From: Candidatus Omnitrophota bacterium
GTDB lineage: Bacteria; Omnitrophota; Gorgyraeia; Aquiviventales; Aquiviventaceae
DNA length: 64,000 nucleotides
Assembly: GCA_023247255.1 (NCBI GenBank)
Contig: JAHFGV010000004.1
Span: 20,023-84,022 of the forward strand
Direction of reading: 5' to 3'
Within the stretch, counting starts at the first letter, position 1. Each line of letters begins with the position of its first letter. The translations under genes and the position numbers were made by a program. This document shows, piece after piece, positions 22,886-52,253 of the stretch. The notes below the pieces were generated by a model. The model saw nothing but the letters and a program-made list of their open reading frames with translations, had not been told where the DNA came from and did no database searches.

Positions 22886-23271
22886 ACGCTTGGAACCTGT
22901 GATGGACTGAACCCAGTTTTCTCTGCTACGTATTGGGGTCATTAGAAACAAAAACGCCCTCCGAAATTCGGAGGACGCTTATCCTCGCTGGCAACCCGGC
23001 TACCCTTCGTACTTGTTTCAGGGCCCGTGGTTTTGCCCCACATGTTTCGCGACACGAAACAATCTGTGGGGCTCCGCATGTTTTGCTTCGCAAAGCATGC
23101 GGAGCGTCCTACCCTTTCGGATAGTTTGCCCCTCACCCCATTGAGCCGGGATGAGTTCCCTTTCGGGATTTCTCAGTCGTCGATCAATTTGTCGTCAATC
23201 GAACCGTTACTTGAAGGGTACCTGATCCCTCCTTCGCGTGTCAAGGGACATCCACTCCAAAAATGTACAGC

Positions 23272-26863: not shown

Positions 26864-28030
26864 TCACTCCAAACGTTCTTCTCCCTCCCATGCCCGCCAG
26901 GTAGCGATATACTGTTTGGCCCAGCTCACATCCTCCCCCTTTGGGCTTACTGCTAAATAACGCTGAAAATACTTGATCGCCTTCTCTCGGTCAAGCAGAT
27001 GTTCCGCGTAGACAATCCCTAAGTTGTAGTAAGCACCTGAGTCGTCCGGCCTCAGCTCGATCACTTTCTTAAATTCTTTTGAGGCTCGGACATAGTCCTT
27101 TTTTTTTACGAACATGACCCCCATATTATAATGGGTATCGGCAAGATCCCGGATGAGTCGCTCGTGTTCTTTGGCAATGGTCCCTACTTCTTTGGGTAAA
27201 GCGTTTACCTGGCGCCTCAATGAAGCGTTTTCGGACACTTGTTGAGTATATTGATTTTGAAGATCCTCTAAACGTTGCTCAAACTTCGTAAGGTCTTTCG
27301 CAGTAGTAGCTTCTCGCTGGGATGCTGTTTGAAGGGACCGTTTGGCATCGCGAAGTTCCCTTTGAAGAACCGTCTGTTTCTTGGCCATCTGCGTCAAACG
27401 CAAGCGCAGGGCTTTTTCCTGGGAACGCTGTTTGACATCCTGGAGTTGTTTTTCAAGCGTTTCACGTTCTTGAAGAAGCCGCGTCTGGGCCGTTTGAAGA
27501 ATCGTTACCTGCTCCTTAAGCGGCGTGAGTCGATACAACAGCTCCGAGCGTTGTTGTCCGGTTCGCTGAAGCAGCTGTTCGAGAAGACTGCGTTCCGCCT
27601 CTGCCTGGGTGTGTTGTTGTGCGATGCGTTGTACCTGGGTTAAAAGATTATCCCGGTCACTGGTAATCTGTTCGTATTGCTGGGAGAGATTCGCGTAGCG
27701 CTGTTGCATATCTTGAAACTGATGTCCAACCCAGGCGCTTTGCTCTTGAGCGATTAGGCGTTGGACATCTGTCAAACGAAGTTCCGCGTTGAACGCCTGC
27801 CAGGCACAAACCCCACCGATAACGACCGTAGCTGCCGATACAAAAGCGATGATTGCCCAAATCGTTACCTTGCCCTTTAATCCTAAATGGAACCCCACAG
27901 GATGAGCCTGTGGCATCGGTAAGTCTGCCCCGATGGAACCGACATCCCGCCCACCCATCGGCCTCTGTACTGCCGTGCCGCCCACGGACGAAGACCGTGG
28001 CACAATGGCGAGGTTGCGAGAGAAAATCAT
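26864..28030 (-). CDS. FimV/HubP-like membrane protein: N-terminal family-A-encoded peptide, TM helix, coiled coil, C-terminal TPR repeats
   Basis: N-terminus is MIFSRNLAIVPRSSSVGGTAVQRPMGGRDVGSIGADLPMPQAHPVGF (element-encoded), followed by a TM helix (VTIWAIIAFVSAATVVIGGVCAW), coiled coil, then TPR-like HYNMGVMFVKKKDYVRASKEFKKVIELRPDDSGAYYNLGIVYAEHLLDREKAIKYFQRYLAV. Its ATG overlaps the secretin stop (ATGA). Confidence 0.6.
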   Translation of the reverse strand: MIFSRNLAIVPRSSSVGGTAVQRPMGGRDVGSIGADLPMPQAHPVGFHLGLKGKVTIWAIIAFVSAATVVIGGVCAWQAFNAELRLTDVQRLIAQEQSAWVGHQFQDMQQRYANLSQQYEQITSDRDNLLTQVQRIAQQHTQAEAERSLLEQLLQRTGQQRSELLYRLTPLKEQVTILQTAQTRLLQERETLEKQLQDVKQRSQEKALRLRLTQMAKKQTVLQRELRDAKRSLQTASQREATTAKDLTKFEQRLEDLQNQYTQQVSENASLRRQVNALPKEVGTIAKEHERLIRDLADTHYNMGVMFVKKKDYVRASKEFKKVIELRPDDSGAYYNLGIVYAEHLLDREKAIKYFQRYLAVSPKGEDVSWAKQYIATWRAWEGEERLE

Positions 28031-29712
28031 TTACGCGCTCCCGCAGAGGACTCATCAGACAGCGTCGGGGCATAATCGCGGTATTCATCCCGAATCGTCG
28101 ACTCGTCTCCGCTCCTCAATTCATCCCCTTCCACGATATGGGGGGTGATAAAGACGACAAGCTCCGTGAGCTGGTCATCTCGATCGGTATCCTTAAACAG
28201 CAAAGGACCCAGCAGAGGAACGTGTCCGAGATAGGGCACCTGTTTGTTCGAGAATTTTTTCTCATCCTTGCGCAATCCTCCGATCACAATCGTCGTTCCA
28301 TCTGCAACCATCACATGGGTCTCTGCGATAGAAGTGTCTACAATGGGTATTTGGTTTTTACTGGGGGTGGTCAGCGTCCGGACGACGCTGGAGACCTCTG
28401 GCTTTATCTTCATGGTGACGAACCCATCCTTGTTGATGAACGGGGTCACGGCCAATTGAATTCCGACGTCGATAAACTGAACATCCTCAGCGGTTGTCGA
28501 TGTGGTTTGTCCGGTAGTGGTCGTCGTTGTGACATAGGCCTCCCGAGTGCCCACATGAATCTTAGCTTCCTGATTCTCGGTAACTAAAAGCCGTGGGTTT
28601 GACATGATTTTCGTTTCACCCAGGGTCTGTAAATATCGGAAAAGCTCATAACCATCCCGCGAGACTGTCCCAAACAGAAGGTTGCCCAATTTGATGGATT
28701 CACCCGCACCCGAACCGGTCAGTTGGATTTCGGGAATGCGCAGCTTGTTCACCGCAGGAACCTCAGAGGGAGCGGTGCCGATTGTGGCATTCCGGAAATC
28801 CCCGAATCCCCCAGGACCGGGTTGTTCAATCCCATGAAACTTGAGATTCGAAAATACCGAATCCCAATCAATGCCAGAATCCATGCTGTTGGAATAGGCG
28901 ACCTTGACGATTTTGGCATCGATCAAAACTTCCCGCGTCTTGCGATCTAAGGCCTGAACCACTTGTTCCAGTTCTCGCATGCGCTCGGGAAACGTCTTGA
29001 TGATCAACTGATTGGTGCGCTCATCCGCCTTGATGTATCCCAACTTGTTCACCTCGATGTGCTCATTGAGCCGTTCCTCAACGTCTTTTGCTTTGGCATA
29101 CCGAAGATCGATGATGCGAGTCATCCCTCCTTGCTCCAAGGTAGCCAGAGCCCTTTCCATCTGGAGAAGATTATCGGTGGTGTCTATCACCATCACGGTC
29201 CCTGAATCCTCATCGACCAGCAATCGACCGATCTCGCTCTTAAGCGTATCCAGCAGATTAAAAGCTTGTTGGGGAATAGCATACTGAAGCCGAAACGTCT
29301 TCACTTGACGCAGATCAGAAAATTTACGGCCATAAAAGCTCCGATATTCCTCTTCGGTCATGATATTGTAGACGTTTCCTTGCTTGTCGTAGGCCAGATC
29401 GTTGCTCCTGAGGATTAAGTCGAAAACGTCCCGGATCGGAACATCGGTTAGAAAGAGATTCACGCGTCCGCTGACATTCTTGCTCATGGCAATGTTTAAA
29501 CCACCCTTTGTCGCCAGATACTTCAGGGCATCGGTCGCTTCGGTGGAACGCAAATCTAGGGATATCAACTGATCCATTCCGCTACCCACCATCTCTGGTT
29601 GAAGATCAACCGGCAGTGAAGCCAGTTCCTGATGAGAAGCTTGGACCCAACCCGTCGATAGTACGAAGATAAGTGCCGTCACCCCAATAACACGATTAAC
29701 ACGTAACGGCAT
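28027..29712 (-). CDS. pilQ: type IV pilus / T2SS secretin
   Basis: Signal peptide, N0/N1-like domains and a C-terminal secretin domain (...NPRLLVTENQEAKIHVGTREAYV...VPYLGHVPLLGPLLFKDTDRDDQLTELVVFITPHIV). Confidence 0.85.
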   Translation of the reverse strand: MPLRVNRVIGVTALIFVLSTGWVQASHQELASLPVDLQPEMVGSGMDQLISLDLRSTEATDALKYLATKGGLNIAMSKNVSGRVNLFLTDVPIRDVFDLILRSNDLAYDKQGNVYNIMTEEEYRSFYGRKFSDLRQVKTFRLQYAIPQQAFNLLDTLKSEIGRLLVDEDSGTVMVIDTTDNLLQMERALATLEQGGMTRIIDLRYAKAKDVEERLNEHIEVNKLGYIKADERTNQLIIKTFPERMRELEQVVQALDRKTREVLIDAKIVKVAYSNSMDSGIDWDSVFSNLKFHGIEQPGPGGFGDFRNATIGTAPSEVPAVNKLRIPEIQLTGSGAGESIKLGNLLFGTVSRDGYELFRYLQTLGETKIMSNPRLLVTENQEAKIHVGTREAYVTTTTTTGQTTSTTAEDVQFIDVGIQLAVTPFINKDGFVTMKIKPEVSSVVRTLTTPSKNQIPIVDTSIAETHVMVADGTTIVIGGLRKDEKKFSNKQVPYLGHVPLLGPLLFKDTDRDDQLTELVVFITPHIVEGDELRSGDESTIRDEYRDYAPTLSDESSAGARK

Positions 29713-29750
29713 TTAAGGTGTTCCTTTTCTGGAAGTGAAAAGCAAAGTTT

Positions 29751-30437
29751 CTATTGAAGGAGAATCTCTTCATGGCCATCTGTCAGCGTAACGCCTCGTT
29801 CATCAATGGACTTGACGGTGAGCCCGTTGAGCTGATCTGCCACCTTAAGAAAATGAGTACGCTGAATGCTGGAGTCTTCGATGAGGGCCTCCGGTTCTCG
29901 TCCTCGATTAATGCCGACTACCGTAAGCGTCTGGGTCAATTCTTCCAAGCGGGTTTTGCCCGACGAAGCAATAACGGCCCCCTCACTTCCGGAGCTGCTT
30001 AAACCGAAGGGGTTGCGTCGAACTAATAAATCCCGATACTGCTCGAGAGGTTTGAGCCGTTCTTCAGCGGTCAGGGTCGTAACCCGTGAAGGGTGAGAAC
30101 CCTGTACCGACCCTCCCAAAGGGGATAATGACAACGTCGGAGGCTTCAGATTGAATAGAAGCAGATCCACAATGATATAAAATCCCAAAGCTGCTAAGAT
30201 CAGCCACATCAGCCGCTGCGCCAATTGCAAGCGAATCAGCAAAGTGTCGGATCGATTGCGGGTATAGGCGTAGGAAGGAATCGCCCGCCGCCAGAGAGCC
30301 TCCCACCATACCTGAGTCTGTGCGATGAACCCGTTGAATGTCATCTGTCGGACGGATTTTCGAGGGGAACCCGAACCCACAGGCCCCTCGATCATACGCA
30401 GGAGGCGCTCTTCTGCAGTCTCTTTGGAAGTACCCAT
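29751..30437 (-). CDS. TM protein with PilP/GspC-like periplasmic beta-domain (possible GspB/ExeB-like partner of the GspA ATPase)
   Basis: TM helix (LMWLILAALGFYIIVDLLLF). The C-terminal part (TLTVVGINRGREPEALIEDSSIQRTHFLKVADQLNGLTVKSIDERGVTLTDG) matches the PilP/GspC HR-domain pattern. Start is possibly at the internal Met (~30395). Confidence 0.45.
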   Translation of the reverse strand: MGTSKETAEERLLRMIEGPVGSGSPRKSVRQMTFNGFIAQTQVWWEALWRRAIPSYAYTRNRSDTLLIRLQLAQRLMWLILAALGFYIIVDLLLFNLKPPTLSLSPLGGSVQGSHPSRVTTLTAEERLKPLEQYRDLLVRRNPFGLSSSGSEGAVIASSGKTRLEELTQTLTVVGINRGREPEALIEDSSIQRTHFLKVADQLNGLTVKSIDERGVTLTDGHEEILLQ

Positions 30438-31330
30438 CCCGCATCCACTTCTTCATGCACCAGTTCTTCGACGATATCCTCTTCAATCACACGGTCCTTG
30501 CGCATAACCAGCGCTCGAAGCGCCCGGTGACAGAGCATCGCGATGCGTCGAGGATAGCCTTCGGAATATTCGTGGATGGCTTCGACGGCGTCATCGGTAA
30601 ACAACCCCAGTGACGAACGGTAGCCCGCTTCACGCAGTCGAAACTGAATCATGTCTTTGGTTTGATTGACGTCTAATGGCTCCAAGGTTGCCTTAAGACT
30701 GATGCGATCGTAGAGATTAGGCATCCGAATCAGCAACGGTAATAACTCCATCTGGCCTAATAGCACCAGCTGCAACAACTTGGCTTCGTTCGTCTCGTAA
30801 TTCAGCAATATCCGCAACACCTCCAAAGACATCCCGTTTAACTTATGCGCTTCATCAATAATAAGGACTACCGTCTGACGTTCTTGAACCGCTTTATGAA
30901 ACAGATAGCGCTCCAGAAATTCTCGGTAATCCACCAACGTGGGAACCTGCGAGGATAGCTCGATCCCTAAGGTCCGGATCAAGCTGCTGAAAAACAAATC
31001 TTCGGAGGGATAGGTGGGATCTAAGACGAGATGGAAACTGAACACCTCGCGTTCCTTGAGCATCTGGATCAGTTTCCTGGCCAGCGTGGTTTTACCGGTT
31101 CCGATATCACCAAGCACGACACTCAATCCGCGCTTGAGTCGGAATTCGATGAGCAAATTGGCCAGGACAATCCGGTGCTTTGGAGATTGATAAAAGAAGG
31201 CGGGATCAGGACTGGTGGAAAACGGTTCTCGGTCAAGTCCTAGAACGCGGTAATAACTCATTCCCCGGTTTTTTACCAATGGCTGGATGAGTGCTCCGGA
31301 ACGTAGCCTCCGGCATCCACTCGCCGCCAC
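30392..31330 (-). CDS. gspA: GspA/ExeA-like AAA ATPase (AAA_22)
   Basis: YYRVLGLDREPFSTSPDPAFFYQSPKHRIVLANLL...VVLGDIGTGKTTLARKL (Walker A) and VLIIDEAHKL (Walker B). The likely start is MSYYRVLG at ~31261. Confidence 0.75.
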   Translation of the reverse strand: MAASGCRRLRSGALIQPLVKNRGMSYYRVLGLDREPFSTSPDPAFFYQSPKHRIVLANLLIEFRLKRGLSVVLGDIGTGKTTLARKLIQMLKEREVFSFHLVLDPTYPSEDLFFSSLIRTLGIELSSQVPTLVDYREFLERYLFHKAVQERQTVVLIIDEAHKLNGMSLEVLRILLNYETNEAKLLQLVLLGQMELLPLLIRMPNLYDRISLKATLEPLDVNQTKDMIQFRLREAGYRSSLGLFTDDAVEAIHEYSEGYPRRIAMLCHRALRALVMRKDRVIEEDIVEELVHEEVDAGWVLPKRLQKSASCV

Positions 31331-31556
31331 CGACCAGACGGTTCCTCAGAACAGTCTGGCCAGCGCATCCGTGAATCCAAGTCACACGTACCGTCGGTGG
31401 TCACAACCGTGTGGCTCCACCGTTGATCATCAGCTGCGGCGTCGTTGCCCGGGTGTCAGCGACGCCGCCCTTCGGCCTCCATACTCCCTACGTACAGAAG
31501 ACGTTAGCAAATTTATCTATCCTTGTCTAGGACAAAGTTTAGGGATACAGCCGGCG

Positions 31557-31916
31557 TCAGTCGGCCGGCAGGCGGTCCCCTGTCCGCACGGTTTCGCGTC
31601 GCAGCCCCTGCTCCACAACGATACTATCCGGCTGGATGGCGATGACCTGCCATGTGCCCACCCTCTGACCCAAGCGTACAGGTTCTCCATCGACAAGCGC
31701 AAGCGGGCTCTTCATATCCCACAAGATTCCGGTGAGCAACGCCTGAGCCTGCGAATCGATGGATTGACGCGGACCAAACATAAAGGGATCCCGCAGTTCC
31801 TCAGCCTCCAGAGGAAATTCCACCCCACACAACCCCATTCCCAACAAGAGACCTATCCTCAAAAGTGGGTTCTTCCTAAGACCTTTGAGACAGAATCGGC
31901 TAGGAACCATGGACAT
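31557..31916 (-). CDS. pilP: PilP-like pilus assembly lipoprotein
   Basis: Signal/lipobox-like N-terminus (LLLGMGLCG). The C-terminal part (LTGILWDMKSPLALVDGEPVRLGQRVGTWQVIAIQPDSIVVEQG) matches the PilP beta-domain. Sits in the pilM-N-O-P-Q gene order. Confidence 0.55.
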   Translation of the reverse strand: MSMVPSRFCLKGLRKNPLLRIGLLLGMGLCGVEFPLEAEELRDPFMFGPRQSIDSQAQALLTGILWDMKSPLALVDGEPVRLGQRVGTWQVIAIQPDSIVVEQGLRRETVRTGDRLPAD

Positions 31917-32550
31917 ACAGCACCACTTTAAGCGTGACGTTTAACAGAGCAATGGACCCATGCTTGGCTTCGAGATCCATCCCTTCCACTCGGACAAGAC
32001 AAGGAAACGTTTTTCCCGTAACCGCTTCGAGATAATCCAGGACGTCACGGAATCGACCCTCTACGTTGAGGACAAGAGGAAGACGCAAACAGACTGAGCC
32101 GTTGAACTTGACCGTTTGGCCTTCTCCATCCTTAGCGGACTCCAGGTTACCCTGCGCGACATTCACTAAGCGAAGATTCGAATGCCCCACTTGTTTTACC
32201 AACACATCTAAGAGTCGCGGGATTTGTTCACTGGATGGAAAGCGCTCAGCCAACTGTTGAAGAATCTGGTTTTGCTCTTCCATCCAAGCGGCAGCTCCAC
32301 CGGCTTCTTGAAGGAAGCTTTCTGTCTGGTGAACCTGTCGGGATAATTGGTCGATCTGGTTTCGCAGCTGTCGGGATTTCTGTGCCGTCGGTAGATACTG
32401 AAGGGTCCAGGTGAGCCCTGTCAGGGCGACACCGATCAAGGCTACAGAGCTGTAGAAGACACGCGGATCTATAACCCGTTCCAAAATCATCGCGGGTTTC
32501 GGATTTCTGATTGTCGATTTTTCCATCGTTCGATCTTCAACCATACGCAA
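31900..32550 (-). CDS. pilO: PilO-like type IV pilus assembly protein
   Basis: Bitopic protein with a TM helix (VALIGVALTGLTWTLQY), a coiled coil and a periplasmic alpha/beta domain. Sits between the PilM-PilN and PilP genes. Confidence 0.55.
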   Translation of the reverse strand: MRMVEDRTMEKSTIRNPKPAMILERVIDPRVFYSSVALIGVALTGLTWTLQYLPTAQKSRQLRNQIDQLSRQVHQTESFLQEAGGAAAWMEEQNQILQQLAERFPSSEQIPRLLDVLVKQVGHSNLRLVNVAQGNLESAKDGEGQTVKFNGSVCLRLPLVLNVEGRFRDVLDYLEAVTGKTFPCLVRVEGMDLEAKHGSIALLNVTLKVVLYVHGS

Positions 32551-32578
32551 TGCAAAATCGCACGCTTTCCTCTCGTCT

Positions 32579-34162
32579 TTACAGGTGGGGTACCTTGCGC
32601 GATTTTGATTGACAGGTCAGGGTAAAATTCACAAGCCCGGTATCATTGCCACTGCGTTGGCTAGAGCCCAAACGGACATCTTCACAGAAACGATCTTTGG
32701 CCAACCACATAGCCATCTCCGACACGTAGCCTTCGGGAGATTCCTCACGGGTCTGGGCTTCAGCGTTCATCTCGATTCCTTCAGGATAAATCGACAACTT
32801 CCTGAGACGCACAGGGCTGGGAAACTTGCGGGCAAGTCGTTTTAACCATTCGGCAGAGAGCGATTCCTCAGTTTCACTCAACTGGTGGACCACCTGAGTT
32901 TGCTCGGTAACCGTGTTGGCAACCGAGGTCATCGGCTCCAGGACCTTCCAGCGTTGTTGCCATTGAGCAAGCTGTCGCTGATACTGGGACTGTTGCCATA
33001 GGGTAGTGCCAATCACCAGCCACAATCCCAAAAGGACAAGACACAAGCCTTGAATAGCGATCCGCTCGAATCGAATCCAGCGATGGATGACTCGAGACGA
33101 CTGAGGTAAAAGATTTACGGTCGAAGCTTCCTCTGCCAGAAGCAATCCACAGGTCGGACTATAGGCGGGAAGATCCTGTCCCAATAAGGAATGAACGGTC
33201 AATCGTTTCACGGCAAGGCCCGAGTGCCGTGAGAGCCAGCGATCAAACCCAGCAAGCTGAGATCCACCGCCGCAGAGTAATAGCTGTTGCGGTTCTACTT
33301 CAGGATGGCTCTGGACGCAAAAGGCTATCGTCCGCTGAATCTCTCCCAGCCATTGTTCCAACACGGGCTGCAGCATAGCCCGATAAGTCGCTACCGGAAG
33401 GCGACCTTCCAGAAGAGAAATCGCGGCATCATCTTCGGGCAATCCCACCTGACATTTGAGCGCTTCGGCCTGTTCCCAAGAAAGCTTTAGCATCTGTTCA
33501 TCGGATACCACGACTTGAGTCATTAATACTTCGGTGAGGGAGTTTGACCCAAGCGCAAGCTCTCGAGCAAAAAGCAAGTGTCGCTGAGCGACGATCGCCA
33601 AAGTGGAATGTCGGGCTCCCAGTTCGAACAAAAGGGTTGGATCCTGCTCAAACCAATCCTGGGTCTGAGCGAGTGCGACGAGGGCTTCAGCCGTCGAATA
33701 GATATGGGTTGGAATCCATCCCGCCTGCCAAAGGATCTGCACCTGTTCCTGTAGATGCTGGACATCACAGGCTGCAGCTTGAATCGTACATTCCAAAGCC
33801 CCATTGACCGGGCGCTTGCTCAACAACCGATAACGAACATGACGCCGCTGTGCCTCAAATGGAAACAAGCTGGGCAAACGATCTTGCAAGGCCTTAGGAA
33901 TCTGATCCGTGGAGGAGACAGAGAGCTTGAGCACACGCAGATGGCTTTGAGGAGCAGCCATCACCACCTGAGACTCATAACGCAACCGCCTCAGCGGATA
34001 CAGAAGCTGGCGCAAATTCCTGGCCACATCTTCCAATGAATCAGAACTCAGTCGAGGCTTCTGATCGAAATGCCACTGGGCAGGTTGTGTCCGTGAAGAA
34101 CCGACCCATACCACCTTGACGGTATGGGCACCAATCTCAATACCCACTCGAATACGATTCAT
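32579..34162 (-). CDS. pilM: PilM-PilN fusion (actin-like ATPase-fold cytoplasmic domain, TM, periplasmic domain)
   Basis: N-terminus MNRIRVGIEIGAHTVKVVWVGSS (PilM/FtsA-like). Internal TM helix IAIQGLCLVLLGLWLVIGTTLW, followed by a PilN-like coiled coil and periplasmic region. Confidence 0.7.
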   Translation of the reverse strand: MNRIRVGIEIGAHTVKVVWVGSSRTQPAQWHFDQKPRLSSDSLEDVARNLRQLLYPLRRLRYESQVVMAAPQSHLRVLKLSVSSTDQIPKALQDRLPSLFPFEAQRRHVRYRLLSKRPVNGALECTIQAAACDVQHLQEQVQILWQAGWIPTHIYSTAEALVALAQTQDWFEQDPTLLFELGARHSTLAIVAQRHLLFARELALGSNSLTEVLMTQVVVSDEQMLKLSWEQAEALKCQVGLPEDDAAISLLEGRLPVATYRAMLQPVLEQWLGEIQRTIAFCVQSHPEVEPQQLLLCGGGSQLAGFDRWLSRHSGLAVKRLTVHSLLGQDLPAYSPTCGLLLAEEASTVNLLPQSSRVIHRWIRFERIAIQGLCLVLLGLWLVIGTTLWQQSQYQRQLAQWQQRWKVLEPMTSVANTVTEQTQVVHQLSETEESLSAEWLKRLARKFPSPVRLRKLSIYPEGIEMNAEAQTREESPEGYVSEMAMWLAKDRFCEDVRLGSSQRSGNDTGLVNFTLTCQSKSRKVPHL

Positions 34163-34194
34163 CCAATTACCAAGAATGCCGGTGGGAGCAATCG

Positions 34195-34385
34195 CGTGCC
34201 CTCAATCCAGTGGCGAGGAGGTGTTAGCAGGCTGGGAAAAAGTCCCGCAGCGCTCAAGGCTGAGAGAATTTTCGATTGTCGATTTGTTGTGTTTTTCAAT
34301 CGGCAATCGACGATTGACAATCGACAATTCGTTGGGCCTCCGCCTCCAGCCAACCGCTAACAGCCCCGATCCCTGAACAAATAGG
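34195..34385. repeat. family-A fragment plus family-B palindromic element copy
   Basis: Reads gagaattttcgattgtcgatttgttgtgtttttcaatcggcaatcgacgattgacaatcgacaattcgttgggcc, which is related to the 2800-3010 and 61420-61510 / 62070-62300 copies. Confidence 0.6.
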
Positions 34386-34402
34386 TGTTTTCCCGTAACC
34401 TG

Positions 34403-34624
34403 TTAGCGCAACCTAAGCCACACATAGAGCGCGGAGGCCAGGCAAAAAACCCCTGAACCTAAAAGGCACAGACCGACACTCATACGGTACTGCATCACTA
34501 CTTGATCCAGCTTACCCCAGGATCGGCTGGTAGACTTACTGAGTCTCTGGAATTGTTTGGAAAACCAAAGCAGACCAATGCCGCCGACCACCGAAATGAT
34601 CCCTGCAATCATTGTGAGAATCAT
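34403..34624 (-). CDS. small two-TM membrane protein (hypothetical)
   Basis: 73 aa with two hydrophobic helices (MILTMIAGIISVVGGIGLLWF; VGLCLLGSGVFCLASALYVWL). Confidence 0.3.
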   Translation of the reverse strand: MILTMIAGIISVVGGIGLLWFSKQFQRLSKSTSRSWGKLDQVVMQYRMSVGLCLLGSGVFCLASALYVWLRLR

Positions 34625-34689
34625 CAGTCAACCTCACTCTTTGAACACCCGCAAGAACGCTGGCCTATCGGAACCGAATGGCAACTGAA

Positions 34690-34990
34690 GAACTGACGTC
34701 ACGCCGCGCCTCTGCTTCATCGATATCTCCATTACCCGTTTGAACGACAAACGCAACGTCGACTCGTCGAATACTGCCTGTAGCCGGCCCATATCCGGGT
34801 GCTGCAATCTAAGGTTCCCGTGGCATCATAATACCGGAACAAGGCTCGTGAGGGCAAGTCTGAGTACACACAAAAGACTGGGCTGATGCGCTTCGCCGAT
34901 CGGCATCGCTCGTCCCACCACCGGCTGGGTTCACGCAACGCGAACGGCAGCCGTGCTCCTTACCTGTGGCGAGAGAGCAAGTGGTGGAAT
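34690..34990 (-). pseudogene. degenerate duplicate of the 3' end of the upstream minor-pilin-like gene (35095..35778)
   Basis: DNA and protein similarity: DLPSRALFRYYDATGTL here versus DSPSRRLFRYYDTNGMA in the 227-aa protein. Similarity continues with frame changes, and there is no start, signal or class-III pilin N-terminus. Confidence 0.5.
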
Positions 34991-35094
34991 CGTCGTCGAC
35001 GTATCGCTCAGGACTGATCCGTCTTCCTCCTCGTTCCGTGCGCAGCTTACACCTAAAACCCAGCGCGACCGCGTTGGTATTTTGTTAGGGGCTC

Positions 35095-35778
35095 TTAAGG
35101 AAAGCGAATCGCTATAGAGGAAGTCACATCCACACGGGCATCTGCGCGATCAAAATTCCCAGCACCTGTCTGAGCAACGAAGGCGATGTCGATCCGACGA
35201 ATCGACGAAAGCCCTGCTCCGCAGCCAGGTGCCGTCATCGCCATACCATTTGTATCGTAATATCGGAATAACCGACGCGATGGAGAATCCAACACGCGCA
35301 CAACCCCTACGGCATCATAGGGGATAACCTCCTCTGATGATGGCGACGGAGGGGAACAGGCATTGTTGGAATAAATGCTCCGTTTAATCGACTCGCCGTC
35401 CAGACGAAGGAGAACGTACTGATTATCAGCCGTCGTAGCAGGGTTGTGCGGAAGGAGAAACCCAACTCTTTGATCTTCGGCAATCCAGATGGCGTTTTGT
35501 AAGGGGCTCGATTGCCTAGCCGCGTACCGTAAACCAGGCAGGGCCTGCCCAGTAAGCGTTGAGAAACTCCCCTCCACACAGGCATGGATGACTTCAAGCG
35601 CCGTACGATTGACGAGTTGCGAGCGTGGCAAAAACATAAACGAACGGCTTCCCTGCAATACCAATGGAGGTACGCTGATGGCAAGAATCCCCACCAAGCC
35701 TATCACGAGAGCTAATTCGACAAGCGTCAACCCTCGGCAATATCCTGATACAACATGCGACGGCGACAAGCGACTCAT
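35095..35778 (-). CDS. minor pilin / pseudopilin (prepilin-type N-terminal methylation domain)
   Basis: RGLTLVELALVIGLVGILAISVPPL class-III signal-like N-terminus (G/LTLVE). Confidence 0.65.
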   Translation of the reverse strand: MSRLSPSHVVSGYCRGLTLVELALVIGLVGILAISVPPLVLQGSRSFMFLPRSQLVNRTALEVIHACVEGSFSTLTGQALPGLRYAARQSSPLQNAIWIAEDQRVGFLLPHNPATTADNQYVLLRLDGESIKRSIYSNNACSPPSPSSEEVIPYDAVGVVRVLDSPSRRLFRYYDTNGMAMTAPGCGAGLSSIRRIDIAFVAQTGAGNFDRADARVDVTSSIAIRFP

Positions 35779-35779
35779 G

Positions 35780-36205
35780 TCACATACCGAACAAGACGTG
35801 TTTCGTCCGATAGCTGATTAACCTAGCCAGCGGATCACTCGAACCGGCTTTGGTTACAGTAACTTGAAGGCGTTTCACACCTTGTTGCGTGGTAGCCGTG
35901 GAACAGCATTCACCGAGCACACAACTTACTTGCCGCGTCAGATCGTACGGATAGCCCTTATAGAGAGGAATAACCGTCGTCACCGGTCTTCCGCTAGGAC
36001 AATCAATAGCTGGTGAAGTGAAGAAATCATTAAAGCTATCGAGATACTCCATCTCGTACTGAGCCAGTTGGGTTGCGACGACTGAATCCTGCGATCCCAA
36101 GGCAGCCCACATGTGCTGATGCAGCAACAGCCCTGTCGGAATGCCAATAATCCCCAGAAGCCCAATCGTCAGTGCTAATTCTACCATCGTCAAGCCACGT
36201 CTCAT
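35780..36205 (-). CDS. minor pilin / pseudopilin (GspI/PilV-like)
   Basis: MRRGLTMVELALTIGLLGIIGIP class-III signal-like N-terminus. Confidence 0.65.
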   Translation of the reverse strand: MRRGLTMVELALTIGLLGIIGIPTGLLLHQHMWAALGSQDSVVATQLAQYEMEYLDSFNDFFTSPAIDCPSGRPVTTVIPLYKGYPYDLTRQVSCVLGECCSTATTQQGVKRLQVTVTKAGSSDPLARLISYRTKHVLFGM

Positions 36206-37290
36206 GGGCTTTTAGTAGCCAACTCCCGATACGAGAGTAGCCGACCTATCCCTGTTCGCTCTTCTGCGTCACTGTCACACTGGTTTGTCGCGCTAATCGT
36301 GGCACAAGCTCGATATTCAGCCTGGAGCCGGCGCCAAAGGACAAATGGAAAAGCCCCTTTGCGTACCTCGCCTATGGATCGGATCGTGAAGTCAGCGGAG
36401 CGATTGGATATGCCCGGCTCGTAGCGACTGCTCCGTGTCGAGGCATCGCTCATCGTAAAATCCACACGTATCCACTCCTTGCTGCTCATGTCTAGAGTGA
36501 AGTAGATGCGGTTATCGGTCCAGCGTTGCCCTGGTGAAATCGCTCTATCCGTGATATTGATGGACGTGCCACTTCCGGGTGGTGTCGTGCAGCTCGGCGT
36601 CGTCCAGACTGTATTGTTGTTCTGCAACCTGATGCTTAGAACTCCTTCACCCAAATTTGGGGACCAACTAATGGCCATGCGATCTATAACCAAGGAAGAG
36701 CCACCGTTAGCCAAGACATTCCTAACAACCCACGATTGGAAGCGATTGCGCGACCCACATACAGAGGACCCTCCACCTGTAGTGGCAAACGAACCAGGTT
36801 TCATATTAACTAGCAAGAAATCAGCCATTGGACCGTTAGCCTGTTCGTTGCCCAGGATAAATACATCATCATCACTCTGGCCTGACAAGGATCCTGCGTC
36901 TACTGTGTAGTCTGGCTGAAGACCAAGCCTCACGCCAGTGCCCTGTCTGAAATCATAGAGTGCCTGCATGACGCCGGCTTGGGCGAGGCTGATGGCTTCG
37001 ATCTCGTTTTCTCGAAGGCTCAAGACCCGTCGGCTCTCTGCCAAGGTTAGAGACACCCCGCTCATAGCAGTAAAGACGCTGCTCAAGATGACAATCAGCC
37101 CCACCAACACCCAGCCTTGCTCAGGGACCCCTTTGGCAGCTTCCCCGCTCTGTCTGCCGTCACACATGATACCTTTCCCAACCCAATCACTCAAACCTCC
37201 CTGTTGCCTGGGTGTAGGTATAGGTGACGTCGGTGCCAACCGGGGCATCGAACTTGTAGGTATTGGCGCTTTCCTGACTCCAGTTCCCAT
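36202..37290 (-). CDS. GspK/PilX-like large minor pilin
   Basis: Hydrophobic N-terminal helix (EQGWVLVGLIVILSSVFTAMSG) followed by a ~300-aa periplasmic domain. Lies between the major pilin and the minor pilins. The likely start is ~37167, which avoids overlap with the pilin gene. Confidence 0.45.
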   Translation of the reverse strand: MGTGVRKAPIPTSSMPRLAPTSPIPTPRQQGGLSDWVGKGIMCDGRQSGEAAKGVPEQGWVLVGLIVILSSVFTAMSGVSLTLAESRRVLSLRENEIEAISLAQAGVMQALYDFRQGTGVRLGLQPDYTVDAGSLSGQSDDDVFILGNEQANGPMADFLLVNMKPGSFATTGGGSSVCGSRNRFQSWVVRNVLANGGSSLVIDRMAISWSPNLGEGVLSIRLQNNNTVWTTPSCTTPPGSGTSINITDRAISPGQRWTDNRIYFTLDMSSKEWIRVDFTMSDASTRSSRYEPGISNRSADFTIRSIGEVRKGAFPFVLWRRLQAEYRACATISATNQCDSDAEERTGIGRLLSYRELATKSP

Positions 37291-37648
37291 CGGATAGAGG
37301 CTGGGTCAGCACCAATTCAAAACAAGGACTACCCATTCCTGTACTGCAACTGGATGGAAAATCCCCAGCACCCGGTTGTGTTCCACCCGTAGTCCCTCCC
37401 CATGTCGCTTCCAGATCATCCGGAAAGGTATCCGAATCAGGAGTAGCTTGGACTTGATTCTTTGACGCCACCAACATGATCCCAGCCCTGAGGGATCCGA
37501 CTATCCCATCCCGCTGAGCCGTGTAGGCTTGGGTCCGGATGTCAATGAATCGAGGAACAGCAATTGCCGCAAGGATCCCCAAGATTGAAATGACGACGAC
37601 CAATTCGATCAATGTAAAACCTAAAGAACGTCTCTTGATGCGGTTCAT
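37187..37648 (-). CDS. pilA: type IV major pilin / GspG-like pseudopilin
   Basis: MNRIKRRSLGFTLIELVVVISILGILAAIAVPRF is the canonical prepilin leader with G/FTLIE and the N-terminal alpha helix. Confidence 0.85.
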   Translation of the reverse strand: MNRIKRRSLGFTLIELVVVISILGILAAIAVPRFIDIRTQAYTAQRDGIVGSLRAGIMLVASKNQVQATPDSDTFPDDLEATWGGTTGGTQPGAGDFPSSCSTGMGSPCFELVLTQPLSDGNWSQESANTYKFDAPVGTDVTYTYTQATGRFE

Positions 37649-37651
37649 TTC

Positions 37652-38725
37652 TCAACCTCCTGACTGTTTGAACAACTTCACCATATCCCACATGGGAACT
37701 AATACCGCCGTGGCCATAAGCAAAACACCCAGGCTCACTACAATCAACAGGGCCGGCTCAATATAAGTGATCAACCTCTTCACCAGATACGTCACCTGTT
37801 GGTCGTAGTAGTCGGCGATGCTCCCCAACAACTCATCCAAACGACCTGTTTCTTCCCCCGTCCTGACCATTTGAAGGACGATGGGTGGAAACAGATGATC
37901 GGCCGCTAAGGCGCGCGCCAACGTCTCACCTCCCTTCACTCGTTCGCGTACCCCTGACAATCCTTTTTGGATATACCTGTTATTAATGCTGTCCCCAGAC
38001 AGCGCGAGGGTATCCAGAATCGGCATTCCGCTTGCAGTCAACGTGGAAACCATGCGGGCAAAACGAGACATCAACAATTCCATATACAACTTTCCCATGA
38101 TCGGAAGACGTAGAAGATTGCGATGCCACCAGAGTTTCCCTCGCTCGGTACGCAGCAAACGCCACCAAGCACAACCCGCTGCGAGCAGCCCGAGTCCTAA
38201 CAACCATCCATATCCAACCAACAGTCGACTGAGTCCCATGACCAATCGCGTCTGAATCGGCAACTGAATCTTCATCGAACTGAAAAATTCAGTAAATCGA
38301 GGCAGGACAAACACGATCATCACCGACAGAGCGACAAGTAAAGTGGCCACCACGATGATGGGATATTGCAAGGCTTGAGCGATCTTAGACCGCAGCTCAA
38401 TCTCCCATGCCGTTAGATCGGCAATGCGCTTCAGGACATCATCGAGCGCCCCAGCCTGTTCTCCAACACGGATCAGCCCGACGAATAGAGGATCGAATAC
38501 ACCGGACTGCCGGGCAAAGGCCTGGGAGAGGGTATGACCATTCGTGAGATCTTGATAAATGACTTCCAGGACTTGTCGTAGACGACTGGATGGCAATTGC
38601 TCCTCCAAAGATTGAAGGCTGGAAAGGATAGGCACCCCTGCGCGCTGCAACACATGAAGTTGCCGAGCGAACAGATAACGATCCTCCAAGCTGACTCGTT
38701 GCGAGAATTTCAGTCTCCGAAACAT
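37652..38725 (-). CDS. pilC: type IV pilus / T2SS inner-membrane platform protein
   Basis: GspF/PilC family: ...FARQLHVLQRAGVPILSSLQ...GLIRVGEQAGALDDVL...VRTGEETGRLDELL...PALLIVVSLGVLLMATAVLVPMWDM. Confidence 0.85.
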   Translation of the reverse strand: MFRRLKFSQRVSLEDRYLFARQLHVLQRAGVPILSSLQSLEEQLPSSRLRQVLEVIYQDLTNGHTLSQAFARQSGVFDPLFVGLIRVGEQAGALDDVLKRIADLTAWEIELRSKIAQALQYPIIVVATLLVALSVMIVFVLPRFTEFFSSMKIQLPIQTRLVMGLSRLLVGYGWLLGLGLLAAGCAWWRLLRTERGKLWWHRNLLRLPIMGKLYMELLMSRFARMVSTLTASGMPILDTLALSGDSINNRYIQKGLSGVRERVKGGETLARALAADHLFPPIVLQMVRTGEETGRLDELLGSIADYYDQQVTYLVKRLITYIEPALLIVVSLGVLLMATAVLVPMWDMVKLFKQSGG

Positions 38726-38731
38726 CTCTTC

Positions 38732-40468
38732 CTAGGCTGTGGGTATTGGCTGTATCTCTTCAGGAACCACGCGATCCAGCTCATCCAACGTCGTTAACCC
38801 TTCCTGCACTTTGCGCAATCCATCCATGCGCATAGTCTTCATCCCCGCAGAAAGTGCCATCTCTTTGAGTTTATGCGTGGGACAACGTTCGGCTACCAAA
38901 GCCTTGCTTCGCTCATCGATGCGAAACAATTCAAAGACACCCATGCGTCCTGAAAATCCCGTCTGGCGGCAAAATCGACAGCCTCGCCCACGAAAGAGTT
39001 TCTGAAGATGGGGGTGGCGCTGCTGAACCTGAAGCGGAGGCTTTTCTTCTTGACGACAGCTCGTACAAATTTTTCTGACCAATCGTTGCGCCACGATCCC
39101 CAGGAGGGTGCTGGACAAAAGATAGGATTCTACACCCATATCAATCAGCCGGGCAACGGTTCCTACTGCATCGTTGGTATGCAGAGTCGACAGTACCAAA
39201 TGACCCGTGAGTGCAGCGTGGATCGCGATTTCGGCAGTCTCACGGTCCCGGATCTCACCGACCATGATCACATCGGGATCTTGCCGAAGGAGCGAGCGAA
39301 GCCCTGTAGCGAAAGTAACCCCCGCTTTCAGATTGATCTGCGTCTGCCGGATCAGTGGCAGTCGATACTCTACCGGGTCTTCAATGGTCATGATGTTCTT
39401 GGCCACTGAGTTGATCTGCGTTAAAGCCCCATACAAGGTCGTCGTCTTGCCGGATCCTGTTGGCCCGGTGACCAAGACCATTCCATGCGGACGCTGGATA
39501 AGGTCAGCAAACTGGGCCAAGACCTGTGCCGAAAACCCCAAGGCCTCCAGGCTTAGGAGAAGGCTTTGATGGTCCAAGAGACGAAGCACAAGATTTTCCC
39601 CAAACAGAGTCGGGTACGTGGACAACCGAACATCGATCAATCGTCCTTCAACAGTCAATGGGAAATGACCGTCTTGCGGCAAGCGATGTTCGGTGATATC
39701 CAGTTTAGCCAGCAACTTTATCCGCGAGGTCATCGCTTCATGCAACGTGACAGGAAGCAGTTTCACTTCTAGGAGCACACCGTCCACCCGATACCGAATC
39801 CGCAGGTTGTTTTCTTCGGGTTCAAGATGGATATCTGAAGCCTTCGCTTCAATCGCTTCCCTCATCAAAGCATCAACCAGTTTTACCACAGGGACTTCTT
39901 CAGCCACGGACGAAACGGCCACAAGCTTCTCTTTCCCAGAAATCCCAACGCTCGATGGAGTCGAAACCCCCGTGAGTGTGGAAGAACTCACCGAGTGCTG
40001 AGCCGCTTGCTCGACAACCCGATGTCCGTAATGACGATCGATCGCTTTACGAATCGCACTGGGATTGCTCACCACAGGCTGGATCACCGGTACCTGGCTG
40101 GCCAAACGCACCTCATCGATCGCAATGGCATTCCACGGGTCAGTAATGGCCACCGTCAGGGAATTACCAATCCGATAGAGGGGCAGCAGGGTATGTTTAC
40201 GCGCCACAGACTCAGGGACTAGCTCAAGTACCTTGGAATCAATCTGGTAGTCCAAGACTTCAAGATAAACGACACCGGACGATTCCGCCTTCAGCTGCGC
40301 AATCGCCTCCTCAGTCAAAATCCCGGAATGAATCAACACTTCCACGACATCCTGGCCGGTCTGCCGGGATTTGGCTTGCGCCGATTGAAGATCGGTCTCC
40401 TTGAGGAACCCCTTGCTGAGCGCCTGACGTTGCCAACCTTCTTTCAAACGCACCAATGCCTCAGTCAT
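38732..40468 (-). CDS. pilB: type IV pilus / T2SS assembly ATPase
   Basis: GspE/PilB: N-terminal GSPII_E_N-like domains, Walker A LVTGPTGSGKTTTLY, the Asp box, and a C-terminal tetracysteine (CTSCRQ...CRFCRQ). Confidence 0.9.
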   Translation of the reverse strand: MTEALVRLKEGWQRQALSKGFLKETDLQSAQAKSRQTGQDVVEVLIHSGILTEEAIAQLKAESSGVVYLEVLDYQIDSKVLELVPESVARKHTLLPLYRIGNSLTVAITDPWNAIAIDEVRLASQVPVIQPVVSNPSAIRKAIDRHYGHRVVEQAAQHSVSSSTLTGVSTPSSVGISGKEKLVAVSSVAEEVPVVKLVDALMREAIEAKASDIHLEPEENNLRIRYRVDGVLLEVKLLPVTLHEAMTSRIKLLAKLDITEHRLPQDGHFPLTVEGRLIDVRLSTYPTLFGENLVLRLLDHQSLLLSLEALGFSAQVLAQFADLIQRPHGMVLVTGPTGSGKTTTLYGALTQINSVAKNIMTIEDPVEYRLPLIRQTQINLKAGVTFATGLRSLLRQDPDVIMVGEIRDRETAEIAIHAALTGHLVLSTLHTNDAVGTVARLIDMGVESYLLSSTLLGIVAQRLVRKICTSCRQEEKPPLQVQQRHPHLQKLFRGRGCRFCRQTGFSGRMGVFELFRIDERSKALVAERCPTHKLKEMALSAGMKTMRMDGLRKVQEGLTTLDELDRVVPEEIQPIPTA

Positions 40469-40487: not shown

Positions 40488-41009
40488 TCAAACGTTTGGC
40501 GAGCGATCAGGAGTTTCCTTGGGAACTAAAGAATAGATCTGTTTCAACAATTCATGAGCCTTGAACGGCTTTCGAATATAGAGATCAGCCCCGCATTCGA
40601 TTCCGAGTTTCTCATCCTGCTCTTGGGTTCTTGCTGTGAACATCATGATGGGTATGTGCTTAAATTTCTGGTCGAATTTCAACAGACGGCATACTTCATA
40701 ACCGTTTAATTTGGGAAGCATCAGGTCAAGGATAATCAAATGGGGTTGATCCATTTGAGCCTTCTTCAACGCTTCTTGACCATCTGAGGCTATGCTGATT
40801 TCATAACCTTCGGCTTCCAAGCGCCGGCCAAGCATCTTCACAATTAAAGGTTCATCATCGACGAGCAGAATGCGTATTTTTTCAGACATCCACAACCTCC
40901 TTCTTTCCCCAACGAGCGGGCACAATCCCAGATGGTTCACGGGACACAATGCCACGGGCGGACGATAACAATTCCTCCGGTGTACGACCATCTTCGGGAA
41001 AACAGGCAC
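40488..41009 (-). CDS. single-domain response regulator (CheY-like receiver)
   Basis: ILLVDDEPLIVKMLGRRLEAEGYEISIASDGQEALKKAQMDQPHLIILDLMLPKLNGYEVCRLLK. The likely start is MSEKIRILLVDDE at ~40889. Confidence 0.8.
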   Translation of the reverse strand: MPVFPKMVVHRRNCYRPPVALCPVNHLGLCPLVGERRRLWMSEKIRILLVDDEPLIVKMLGRRLEAEGYEISIASDGQEALKKAQMDQPHLIILDLMLPKLNGYEVCRLLKFDQKFKHIPIMMFTARTQEQDEKLGIECGADLYIRKPFKAHELLKQIYSLVPKETPDRSPNV

Positions 41010-47100: not shown

Positions 47101-47104
47101 TTTT

Positions 47105-47345: not shown

Positions 47346-47357
47346 CCTGCTAAAGCG

Positions 47358-52252: not shown

Positions 52253-52253
52253 C

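Follow-up and report, generated by a model that had tools for sequence, protein, structure and literature searches.

The model of the mannose-sensitive haemagglutinin (MSH) pilus in TXSScan takes mshA, mshE, mshG and mshL, together with mshM, as mandatory genes held in single loci, which characteristically carry no prepilin peptidase, and the genes of type IVa pili (T4aP) are typically spread over several loci (Denise et al. 2019, PMC6668835). GspB is described as a transmembrane (TM) helix joined to an HR domain of the PilP/GspC fold that binds the secretin's N0 domain, and its gene is usually co-located with gspA, of which forms without a periplasmic region exist (PMC9239104). Within the Omnitrophota, loci combining an F-type ATPase with T4aP genes (the 'symbiotic' type-2/3) are typical (Seymour et al. 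2023, PMC10066038), and a link between pilus or type II secretion system (T2SS)-like loci and giant genes has already been noted in the literature: two preprints report T2SS/type IV pilus (T4P)-like loci beside giant genes (West-Roberts et al. 2023, 10.1101/2023.11.21.568195; and 10.64898/2026.06.07.730766, in 13 of 14 loci). Here we analyse a type IV filament gene cluster in a 64-kb stretch of the genome of a Candidatus Omnitrophota bacterium (the window; positions 20,023 to 84,022 of contig JAHFGV010000004.1), together with the 17.8 kb to its left, 82 kb in all. The window matches the ENA metagenome contig k141_1983974 (121.8 kb) at 99.99% identity or more. Members of the Omnitrophota, ultra-small bacteria without cultured representatives, probably live as predators or parasites, and what their genomes reveal of how they attach to other cells comes mainly from pili, T2SS-like loci, F1-like ATPases and giant proteins. 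Judged by its sequence, the cluster is real and encodes, almost in full, a surface filament machine that is type IV pilus-like, and it is made of two separable modules which are adjacent in this genome.

Two adjacent modules form the filament cluster

Component identities were taken from the listing of open reading frames (ORFs) and from Pfam and NCBIfam profile scans, which together delineate a contiguous cluster with matches far beyond chance. Domain architectures identify the ATPase, the platform, the pilins, the PilM-PilN fusion, PilO, the AAA ATPase and the secretin. The gene order begins with the extension ATPase, the platform, the major pilin and three minor pilins, continues with a frameshifted piece of a pilin gene, a small protein with two TM helices, the PilM-PilN fusion and PilO, and goes on to a PilP/MshK-like protein (P119), an ExeA/MshM-like ATPase, a bitopic protein with a GspB/GspC/PilP-type C-terminal domain (x228) and the secretin. 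The original prediction had recognised here, at 28027-40468, a type IV filament cluster with T4aP-style and T2SS-style parts. Its genes lie at or near those positions, all on the minus strand (as does every gene described below from the hybrid histidine kinase down to the giant gene), but its boundaries do not hold, as the unit extends from a response regulator gene at 40488-40889 to a TPR protein gene at 26864-28030 and on to two further genes, x229 and cc901. Metagenome gene calls shorten some ORFs, giving the boundaries used here for the large pilin-like protein (36202-37167, 321 residues), the AAA ATPase (30392-31261, 289 residues) and PilO (31900-32490, 196 residues). The description of the cluster as a mixture of T4aP and T2SS is not supported: the same component set defines the MSH pilus, the cluster contains no GspC, GspL, GspG or GspK, and a separate T2SS-like cluster lies elsewhere on the contig. 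None of the cut-offs of the NCBIfam equivalog models for PilB, GspE, GspF, PilC, PilQ, GspD and MshL was reached.

Comparison with relatives divides the cluster in two. Module A (40889-31557), from the response regulator to P119, keeps its gene order in four relatives (loci L003, L004, L008 and L009), in which the extension ATPase is 62-66%, the PilM-PilN fusion 34-47% and the 321-residue protein 38-49% identical to the window copies. In L004 the module ends after the 119-residue gene, and housekeeping genes for lipopolysaccharide and a protease come next. Module B (31261-23272), from the AAA ATPase to cc901, was sampled in seven independent loci (the window, L018, L019/L020, L021, L022/L023, L024 and L025). 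Its core, which consists of the AAA ATPase, x228, the secretin and the TPR protein, is present in all seven, and x229 in six (five of the six besides the window, with no match in L025). Identities to the window copies are 63-79% for the secretin, 70-77% for the ATPase, 34-47% for x228, 31-48% for the TPR protein and 38-58% for x229. Among these loci, module A lies upstream of module B only in the window. A T2SS-like module of the GspG...GspK-PilM type occupies that position in L022/L023 and L024, and neither is found there in L018, L019, L021 and L025. The secretin module is preceded by a histidine kinase, a TPR (Peptidase_MA_2) protein and LysE in L018, L019 and L021, and by kinases, the response regulator and module A in the window. 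A gap of 295 nt separates the two modules in the window; the genes inside each overlap or stand a few bases apart. Module A is a rare and lineage-specific type IV pilus/MSH-like set, found in a handful of metagenomic relatives. The two species-representative metagenome-assembled genomes (MAGs) closest in module A, those of L003 and L004, are labelled 'uncultured Planctomycetales', a label that may be an artefact of taxonomy mapping. Relatives of the secretin module that bear an organism name point to Omnitrophota (L021, which has the housekeeping gene order of the window, is an NCBI Omnitrophica MAG), as do the genomic hallmarks of the contig, and we take the organism to be an Omnitrophota-like member of the PVC group.

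We favour, with moderate confidence, a type IV pilus-like filament machine built from these two separable modules, brought side by side here. The response regulator would control module A, in which the PilB/MshE-type ATPase and the PilC/MshG-type platform would polymerise the 153-residue major pilin, three minor pilins (one of them large and without the glutamate at position 5, Glu5) would probably prime or cap the fibre, and the PilM-PilN fusion, PilO and the PilP/MshK-like protein would form an alignment complex. The soluble ExeA/MshM-like ATPase would probably be recruited by the conserved cytoplasmic N-terminus of x228, whose C-terminal GspB/GspC/PilP-type domain would probably contact the secretin's N0 domain, and the AAA ATPase, x228 and the TM-coiled-coil-TPR protein would help to assemble or anchor the secretin, the presumed exit of the fibre. 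The prepilin peptidase and any retraction ATPase would be encoded elsewhere. We infer that module A uses this secretin, that the AAA ATPase plays a GspAB-like role with x228 and that the function of the machine is adhesion.

Several observations weigh against this picture. The organism is known from metagenomes only, and no pilus has been observed. The pairing of module A with the secretin rests on adjacency in one lineage, and the T2SS-like module that stands beside the same secretin module in other lineages may be its main partner. The N-domain of the extension ATPase has a degenerate cyclic di-GMP (c-di-GMP) motif (23 bits against a 38-bit cut-off), and the affinities of this protein are spread among PilB, GspE and MshE without settling on one of them. 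The HR-domain matches of x228 and P119 are weak (E 7e-5 to 1e-3) and confined to some family members, and profile searches of Protein Data Bank (PDB) sequences with the two families returned nothing relevant. Lastly, the locus has been rearranged, as the frameshifted pilin fragment attests.

The filament module and its affinities

The extension ATPase (38732..40468, 578 residues; T2SSE 3e-137, MshEN 1.6e-18) is of the PilB/MshE type. It has the features of a T4aP PilB, namely an MshEN-type N-domain together with Walker A and tetracysteine (CxxC...CxxC) motifs read from the sequence, and misses the equivalog cut-off, scoring 601 bits with the PilB model (cut-off 675.65) and 575 bits with the GspE model, also below its cut-off. 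It matches PilB of Geobacter and Myxococcus over the full length (463-468 bits), and likewise PilB structures, including the Thermus T4aP PilB/PilF (455-468 bits), and matches GspE over the motor domain only. When the motor domain is taken alone, the PilB and GspE models give 401 and 388 bits, and for the ATPase of the second, T2SS-like cluster 379 and 367 bits; scores within 13 bits of each other do not discriminate a PilB from a GspE affinity. The platform protein (PilC/GspF/MshG, 37652..38725, 357 residues) has the two repeats of its family (T2SSF 3.9e-56) and lacks about 50 N-terminal residues of canonical forms. Its best-scoring model is GspF, at 322 bits for a cut-off of 424.

Three of the pilins have class III signal peptides with Glu5. 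The major pilin candidate (37187..37648, 153 residues; N_methyl 1.5e-8; RSLG/FTLIELV) has orthologues in the four relatives at 35-64% identity and reaches 31.4 bits with the GspG model, far from the cut-off of 88.85, and so is not of the GspG type. Of the two smaller minor pilins, one (35780..36205, 141 residues; MRRG/LTMVEL, read from the sequence) is kept in four relatives, and so is the other (35095..35778, 227 residues; G/LTLVEL, N_methyl 0.0066), at 42-56% identity. The remaining pilin-like protein (36202..37167, 321 residues; G/WVLVG) is large and lacks Glu5. It had been called GspK-like, a name that finds no support, since T2SSK matched none of 5 close and 28 distant family members. The protein itself has no Pfam or NCBIfam match, and hhalign gives 1.7% probability to an alignment of its family profile with the true GspK of this genome. 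The family is small, with 90 representative clusters among 1.84 billion, and a single-sequence AlphaFold2 (AF2) model was unusable (pLDDT 33). Any resemblance to GspK or PilX would be one of analogy, as a large pilin-like protein lacking Glu5.

Between the pilins and the alignment complex lies the pilin fragment (34671..34860), confirmed as a second copy of the 3' end (63 codons) of the 227-residue pilin gene, disrupted by a frameshift: two tblastn high-scoring pairs in different frames match residues 164-226 at 61-73% identity. It is missing from L003 and L008, where a 73-residue gene directly follows the 227-residue pilin gene. The window copy of this small protein (34403..34624, 73 residues), which is 44-47% identical to those in L003 and L008, has two hydrophobic helices by hydropathy.

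The alignment complex of T4aP, comprising PilM, PilN, PilO and PilP, is present, with PilP the weaker assignment, resting on an RDPF motif and similarity to MshK. That PilM and PilN are fused (32579..34162, 527 residues; PilM_2 5.8e-14), as originally predicted, is borne out by an AF2 model with a pLDDT of 85, in which an actin-like domain (residues 1-345) is followed by a TM helix with a coiled coil (354-430) and a ferredoxin-like domain (437-519). The best Foldseek matches are the PilM structures 5eou, 2ych and 3jc8_Ma (from Pseudomonas, Thermus and Myxococcus; TM-scores 0.71-0.77). PilM takes the top 10 places of the ranking, then come FtsA and MreB, and no GspL is found among the best 50. 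Nine close homologues of the fusion are 35-49% identical to it. The PilO-like protein (31900..32490, 196 residues) scores 27.6 bits with Pfam PilO (cut-off 22). P119 (31557..31916, 119 residues) is a PilP/MshK-like periplasmic protein with a signal sequence, the RDPF motif and a small beta domain. It is 30% identical to Aeromonas MshK (E=4e-8), and the region spanning the RDPF motif and the beta domain aligns with the x228 family in hhalign at E=2.5e-4.

These features also suit an ordinary T4aP, used for twitching and adhesion, with pilT and pilD elsewhere and no special tie to MSH, T2SS or the giant protein. We regard this reading as possible, and hold it tentatively. It draws on the best full-length ATPase matches, which are to deltaproteobacterial and Thermus PilB/PilF, on the PilM fold and on the retained order PilM-N-O-P-...-secretin. 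T4aP genes are, as in the relatives here, typically found over several loci (PMC6668835), and Seymour et al. (PMC10066038) called T4aP in nearly all Omnitrophota. Against it stand the failure of every NCBIfam T4aP equivalog model to reach its cut-off, a secretin without an AMIN domain and the lack of PilT in the 82 kb. To our knowledge, a canonical T4aP includes neither an ExeA/MshM-type ATPase nor a TPR protein beside its secretin.

The platform score invites another explanation, in which module A would be a T2SS proper and assemble a pseudopilus in the periplasm to drive folded proteins out through the secretin. Such a reading could also appeal to the GspA/GspB-like pair and to the GspD-like N0-N1-N2 architecture of the secretin without AMIN. 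We nevertheless think it very improbable. The cluster has no GspG-type pseudopilin, no T2SSK and, apart from HR-like domains, nothing of GspC; a full PilM fold occupies the position of GspL; and the N-domain of the ATPase is MshEN rather than the GspL-binding N1E. Moreover, a T2SS-type pseudopilin set is already provided by the second type IV filament cluster (L015 6202-15467), about 12 kb left of the window start on the same strand, and this argues against module A as a T2SS. That cluster runs in the order ATPase, GspF, GspG, GspI/J/K-like genes, a PilM-N-type fusion, a GspM-like gene and genes for proteins of 124 and 349 residues. Its GspG scores 151.9 bits, well above the cut-off of 88.85 that the window pilin fails to reach, and its ATPase has a canonical MshE-type c-di-GMP motif (51.6 bits, cut-off 38). 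The two clusters share 38.6% identity between their ATPases and 32% between their platforms, and must therefore be old paralogues. No secretin gene was found in the second cluster or anywhere in the 17.8 kb left of the window; a single secretin may serve both clusters. The second cluster stands directly after an F1-like ATPase operon (epsilon, b/delta, alpha, gamma and beta), which starts at window position 1784 and has its first two genes at 536-1264 and 1512-1784 and the rest in L015.

The two-module filament machine that we favour, like the T4aP reading, calls for a prepilin peptidase encoded elsewhere. The original statement that the window holds no PilT/PilU and no prepilin peptidase proved correct, because it contains no second ATPase of the T2SSE family and no polytopic candidate ORF: among ORFs of at least 150 residues, at least four hydrophobic segments occur in LptF and LptG only. 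PilT is absent from the window and from the 17.8 kb to its left, and Peptidase_A24 (PilD) has no Pfam or NCBIfam match in the window and none among precomputed Pfam hits in the flanks. A search of the literature for PilT in Omnitrophota gave nothing usable. Two genes upstream of module A in L004 (1061-2320) lies an extra T2SSE-family ATPase of 419 residues without an MshEN domain; it covers the whole T2SSE profile and is therefore not an obvious PilT.

Regulatory genes precede module A. The response regulator (40488..40889; Response_reg 3.4e-28) lies 19 nt upstream of the ATPase gene, and one is found directly 5' of the ATPase in L003, L004, L008 and L009 as well (48-51% identity). The copies in L004 (3377-4156), L008 (1352-2110) and L009 (2898-3680) have in addition a fused PilZ domain, absent from that of the window. 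A histidine kinase gene (40882..42855; HAMP, HisKA and HATPase_c in Pfam) overlaps the response regulator gene by 8 nt. Upstream of it, a hybrid histidine kinase (42921..44990), in which Pfam finds receiver, PAS, HisKA and HATPase_c domains and a GGDEF_2-like tail, is a probable regulator of the system, and homologues (41-46% identity) are located upstream of the secretin module in L022-L024. Upstream of the kinases, at 45674-46201, is a gene for a YajQ-family c-di-GMP-binding protein. The YajQ-family protein and the PilZ domains of the relatives hint at c-di-GMP signalling around the system. An Rfam scan of the cluster found no riboswitch or other regulatory RNA, and a scan for sigma-70 promoters found sites no more numerous than in shuffled sequence.

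The secretin module and the giant protein

Module B opens with a P-loop ATPase of the ExeA/GspA/MshM family (30392..31261, 289 residues; AAA_22 5.7e-20), which is 33% identical both to the ATPase domain of Aeromonas ExeA and to Aeromonas MshM and scores 173 bits with TIGR03015 (cut-off 324.5). The protein has no hydrophobic segment and no PG_binding (PF01471) match and is thus soluble, so that its earlier description as GspA-like stands as to the family (COG3267) but not in the strict sense, the TM segment and peptidoglycan-binding domain of GspA being absent. Relatives number more than 5,500; the best 120 are 68-80% identical, the named ones mostly from 'Candidatus Omnitrophica', and homologues are annotated as ExeA by the Joint Genome Institute (JGI). 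Two distant MAGs, of which one belongs to an unclassified bacterium and the other bears the label Bacteroidota, encode an ExeA-like ATPase (42% identical to that of the window) directly upstream of a PilM gene (L005 8881-11170; L006 1440-3867); this ties the ATPase family to type IV filament genes outside this lineage as well. A match in a Photobacterium plasmid collection (L011) was dropped on account of its unrelated gene context.

The next gene, overlapping that of the ATPase by 46 nt and adjacent to it in all seven loci, encodes the bitopic protein x228 (29751..30437, 228 residues), with one TM helix and an RNPF motif. Its cytoplasmic N-terminus has a motif, KETAEE-LLRMIEG, that is invariant in the family alignment, and its C-terminal domain is matched by Pfam T2SSC (7e-5) and T2SSB (1.3e-3) in two of five family members. 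Direct alignment of the family with Aeromonas ExeB by hhalign was not significant. The suggestion that the 228-residue protein might be the GspB analogue nonetheless fares well: given the single TM helix, the R-N-P-F motif, the T2SSC and T2SSB matches and the adjacency to the ATPase, it is plausible and, from sequence features, a reasonable if unproven assignment.

The secretin (28027..29712, 561 residues; Secretin 1e-47) has a signal peptide, an STN/N0 domain, two Secretin_N domains and the secretin domain. The PilQ model gives 255 bits (cut-off 284.35), GspD 252 and MshL 166.5 (cut-off 250.2), all below cut-off. The Pfam scan found no AMIN domain, by which a T4aP PilQ is recognised. The stop of the secretin gene is overlapped by 4 nt by the gene for the TPR protein (26864..28030, 388 residues as an ORF; TM segment, coiled coil, TPR_1 2.2e-10), which follows the secretin in seven of seven loci. 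Then come x229 (26115..26804), a secreted protein with a signal peptide, and cc901 (23272..25977), a coiled-coil protein with SMC-like matches whose C-terminal ~90 residues, including a hydrophobic helix, are conserved.

Further downstream is the gene for a giant protein (3161..21010, 5,949 residues), which has a single N-terminal hydrophobic segment (a signal or an anchor), some 50 Ig-like repeats, each of ~95 residues, and a non-repeat coiled-coil C-terminus of ~650 residues; the Kre9_KNH Ig-like domain matches with summed scores of 116 and 96 bits. It had been placed immediately downstream of the cluster, which is not the case, for four genes (those of the TPR protein, x229, cc901 and a Y1-like protein) and two hairpins lie between. 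The hairpins (22861..22980) are terminator-like, with stems of 13 and 10 bp and T-runs, and are located between the cc901 stop and the start of the Y1-like gene. The latter (21427..22785) encodes a membrane protein with an N-terminal IS200/RAYT-like Y1 domain (Y1_Tnp 9.5e-6; REP_Tyr_transpos 50.5 bits, cut-off 80), a central TM helix and a C-terminal domain 30% identical to x229 over 143 residues. We rejected its reading as a mobile-element transposase, since the HUH motif is replaced by DSIEL, a TM helix and x229-like domain are present, and L018, L019 and L020 likewise have the gene ahead of the giant gene (43-46% identity in L018 and L019). The product may be a membrane-tethered regulator.

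Across the seven loci, an Ig-repeat protein of more than 5,700 residues follows the secretin module in three (the window, L018 and L019/L020), the orthologues in L018 and L019/L020 having 5,733 and 5,901 residues and N-termini 34-58% identical; proteins of 670, 789, 1072 and 1397 residues with a cc901 C-terminus follow it in L024, L022, L021 and L025. The link to the giant protein thus appears to belong to the secretin module and not to the pilus genes, and is plausible, though not established as functional. One reading would make the link functional: with module A or the neighbouring T2SS-like module as its motor, the secretin module would carry the giant and/or cc901-like proteins across the outer membrane, or hold them there, for attachment to host or prey cells. 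Besides the recurrence of giant orthologues three to four genes downstream of the secretin module and of cc901-type proteins after it, this reading can cite the N-terminal signal or anchor of the giant, the absence of any type I, V or IX secretion system (T1SS, T5SS or T9SS) signature in Pfam and the T2SS/T4P-like loci reported beside Omnitrophota giant genes in the two preprints (10.1101/2023.11.21.568195; 10.64898/2026.06.07.730766). We consider it unlikely on several grounds. The giant gene is missing from the more distant loci, two strong terminators and a separate regulator-like gene stand between it and the cluster, and the published giants are of a different type (more than 30,000 residues, with many TM helices). 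We know of no T2SS or T4P that exports a substrate of ~600 kDa.

The synteny itself may also be inherited. The housekeeping order MetK, AhcY, LptG, LptF, ComF-like and DsbH-like thioredoxin (window 46171-56708) is kept in L018, L019 and L021 at 48-75% identity, and the giant-bearing genomes share the order AhcY, LptG, LptF, ComF, DsbH. With general gene order conserved in this way, synteny is weak evidence of function, and inheritance alone could explain that of the giant gene. The ComF-like gene (50400-51161; DZR_2 and phosphoribosyltransferase) stays beside LptF/G in relatives without module A there, and a competence pilus was discarded for that reason.

A broader version would have the ExeA-like ATPase, x228, the secretin, the TPR protein, x229 and cc901-like proteins form a stand-alone outer-membrane gate, shared in Omnitrophota by two different inner-membrane filament machines, the pilus-like module of the window and the GspG/I/J/K module ~12 kb beyond its left end. 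The gate would export or anchor very large surface proteins, such as the cc901 family and the Ig-repeat protein of 5,949 residues, by which the cell attaches to host or prey. We offer this as speculation, and think it rather improbable.

On the machine of two adjacent modules, as we prefer to read the locus, what had looked like a pilus cluster beside a giant gene becomes two units of very different conservation, a secretin module that is the constant partner of large surface proteins and a pilus module present in a handful of metagenomic relatives. This sharpens the hypothesis to one in which the secretin module may serve as a gate for large surface proteins, and yields, outside Proteobacteria, a concrete candidate for a pair that assembles secretins in the manner of GspA/GspB. 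Should the gate hypothesis be wrong, the locus would be one more divergent type IV pilus locus.

A dispersed REP-like (repetitive extragenic palindromic) DNA repeat, with a conserved core, CCCACGGGATGAGCCTGTGGCACCGGTAAGTC, that includes a small palindrome, runs through the window. Copies lie at 2723-3139 (in tandem), 23723-23850, 27891-28016, 47119-47213, 61406-61513 and 62026-62300, with a short piece at 34295-34328; they are 78-97% identical, and some are inverted. Such copies account for the TPR ORF up to codon ~48, for cc901 between codons ~707 and 770 and for a 427-residue ORF up to codon ~150, so that these stretches may not be coding. This last ORF (1909-3192), downstream of the giant gene, has N-terminal ~150 residues that are translated repeats; from a later start, which is likelier, it would encode a protein of ~265 residues that has a C-terminal TM helix and a signal resembling that of lipoproteins (MVMMLIGC). 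Copies of the repeat flank two minus-strand tRNA genes (61578-61649 and 61854-61935).

Comparison with known systems

Within the phylum, the contig resembles the loci of Seymour et al. (2023) in having an F1-like operon followed by a type IV filament cluster, and differs from them in that the cluster so placed is the second, T2SS-like one and not the pilus cluster of the window. The likeness to the published Omnitrophota giant loci lies in gspD/E/F-like genes and several genes with class III signal peptides close to, and in the orientation of, a very long ORF. In the published loci the giants are longer than 30,000 residues and have many TM helices and SecA-like domains, whereas the protein here has 5,949 residues, Ig-like repeats and one N-terminal hydrophobic segment. 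ExeA, secretin and PilM go unmentioned in the text of the 2023 preprint, and likewise in the context passages of the 2026 preprint.

With the T4aP of Myxococcus xanthus, Geobacter and Thermus thermophilus, the locus shares full-length alignment of the ATPase (455-468 bits), the PilM fold (TM-score 0.71-0.77), the logic of the alignment complex and class III pilins. It departs from them in its fused PilM-PilN, in a secretin without AMIN flanked by ExeA-like, putative HR-domain and TPR accessories, in having no PilT nearby and in scoring below the cut-off of every equivalog model. The ATPase and x228 recall GspA/GspB (ExeA/ExeB), and especially the Alteromonas/Pseudoalteromonas archetype, in which GspA has no periplasmic region (PMC9239104): in both, the gene of an AAA+ ATPase is coupled to that of a bitopic protein, beside a secretin gene, and x228 has its weak T2SSB and T2SSC matches. 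Here, however, the ATPase has neither a TM segment nor a peptidoglycan-binding domain, the cytoplasmic N-terminal motif of x228 is not described for GspB, and x228 has no significant direct similarity to Aeromonas ExeB.

The MSH system of Vibrio and Aeromonas (mshI-J-K-L-M-N-E-G-F-B-A-C-D-O-P-Q) has the most in common with the locus in composition: an ATPase with an MshEN domain, a platform, PilM-PilN-type, PilO-like and MshK-like proteins, a secretin without AMIN, a soluble ExeA-family ATPase, a TPR protein and several pilins, with no prepilin peptidase or PilT in the locus. Identities to the MSH cluster of Aeromonas caviae are 40.6% for MshE, 38.5% for MshG, 30% for MshK, 29% for MshL and 33% for MshM; nothing there matches PilM-N, the TPR protein or x228. 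The order of blocks is reversed in the locus, with ATPase, platform and pilins first, and an additional bitopic protein, with a putative HR domain, is inserted between the AAA ATPase and the secretin. The locus also has minor pilins unrelated to those of MSH and a secretin below the MshL cut-off, and the system is split over two loci in relatives. MSH is known from Gamma- and Epsilonproteobacteria and Chrysiogenetes (PMC6668835), a range that does not take in Omnitrophota.

Might the locus belong to the MSH family proper, beyond the taxa from which that family has been described? It has counterparts of all five mandatory genes (a pilin and MshE-, MshG-, MshL- and MshM-like proteins) in a single locus without a prepilin peptidase, the sizes of other products fit MshI (the fusion), MshJ, MshK and MshN, and MshE is the best match of the ATPase among three Aeromonas caviae paralogues (on a chromosome-like record). 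Against this, the secretin reaches 167 bits with the MshL model, below both the cut-off of 250 and its scores with PilQ and GspD, the ATPase scores 465 bits to PilB structures and 409 bits to MshE, the AAA ATPase is as similar to ExeA as to MshM, and BLAST finds no similarity between PilM-N and MshI or between the TPR protein and MshN. With the differing gene order and the split over two loci in relatives added, we judge strict membership improbable. On the evidence of its sequences no single family membership is established for the locus, which in composition appears closest to MSH and in sequence falls within the radiation of T4aP, MSH and T2SS.

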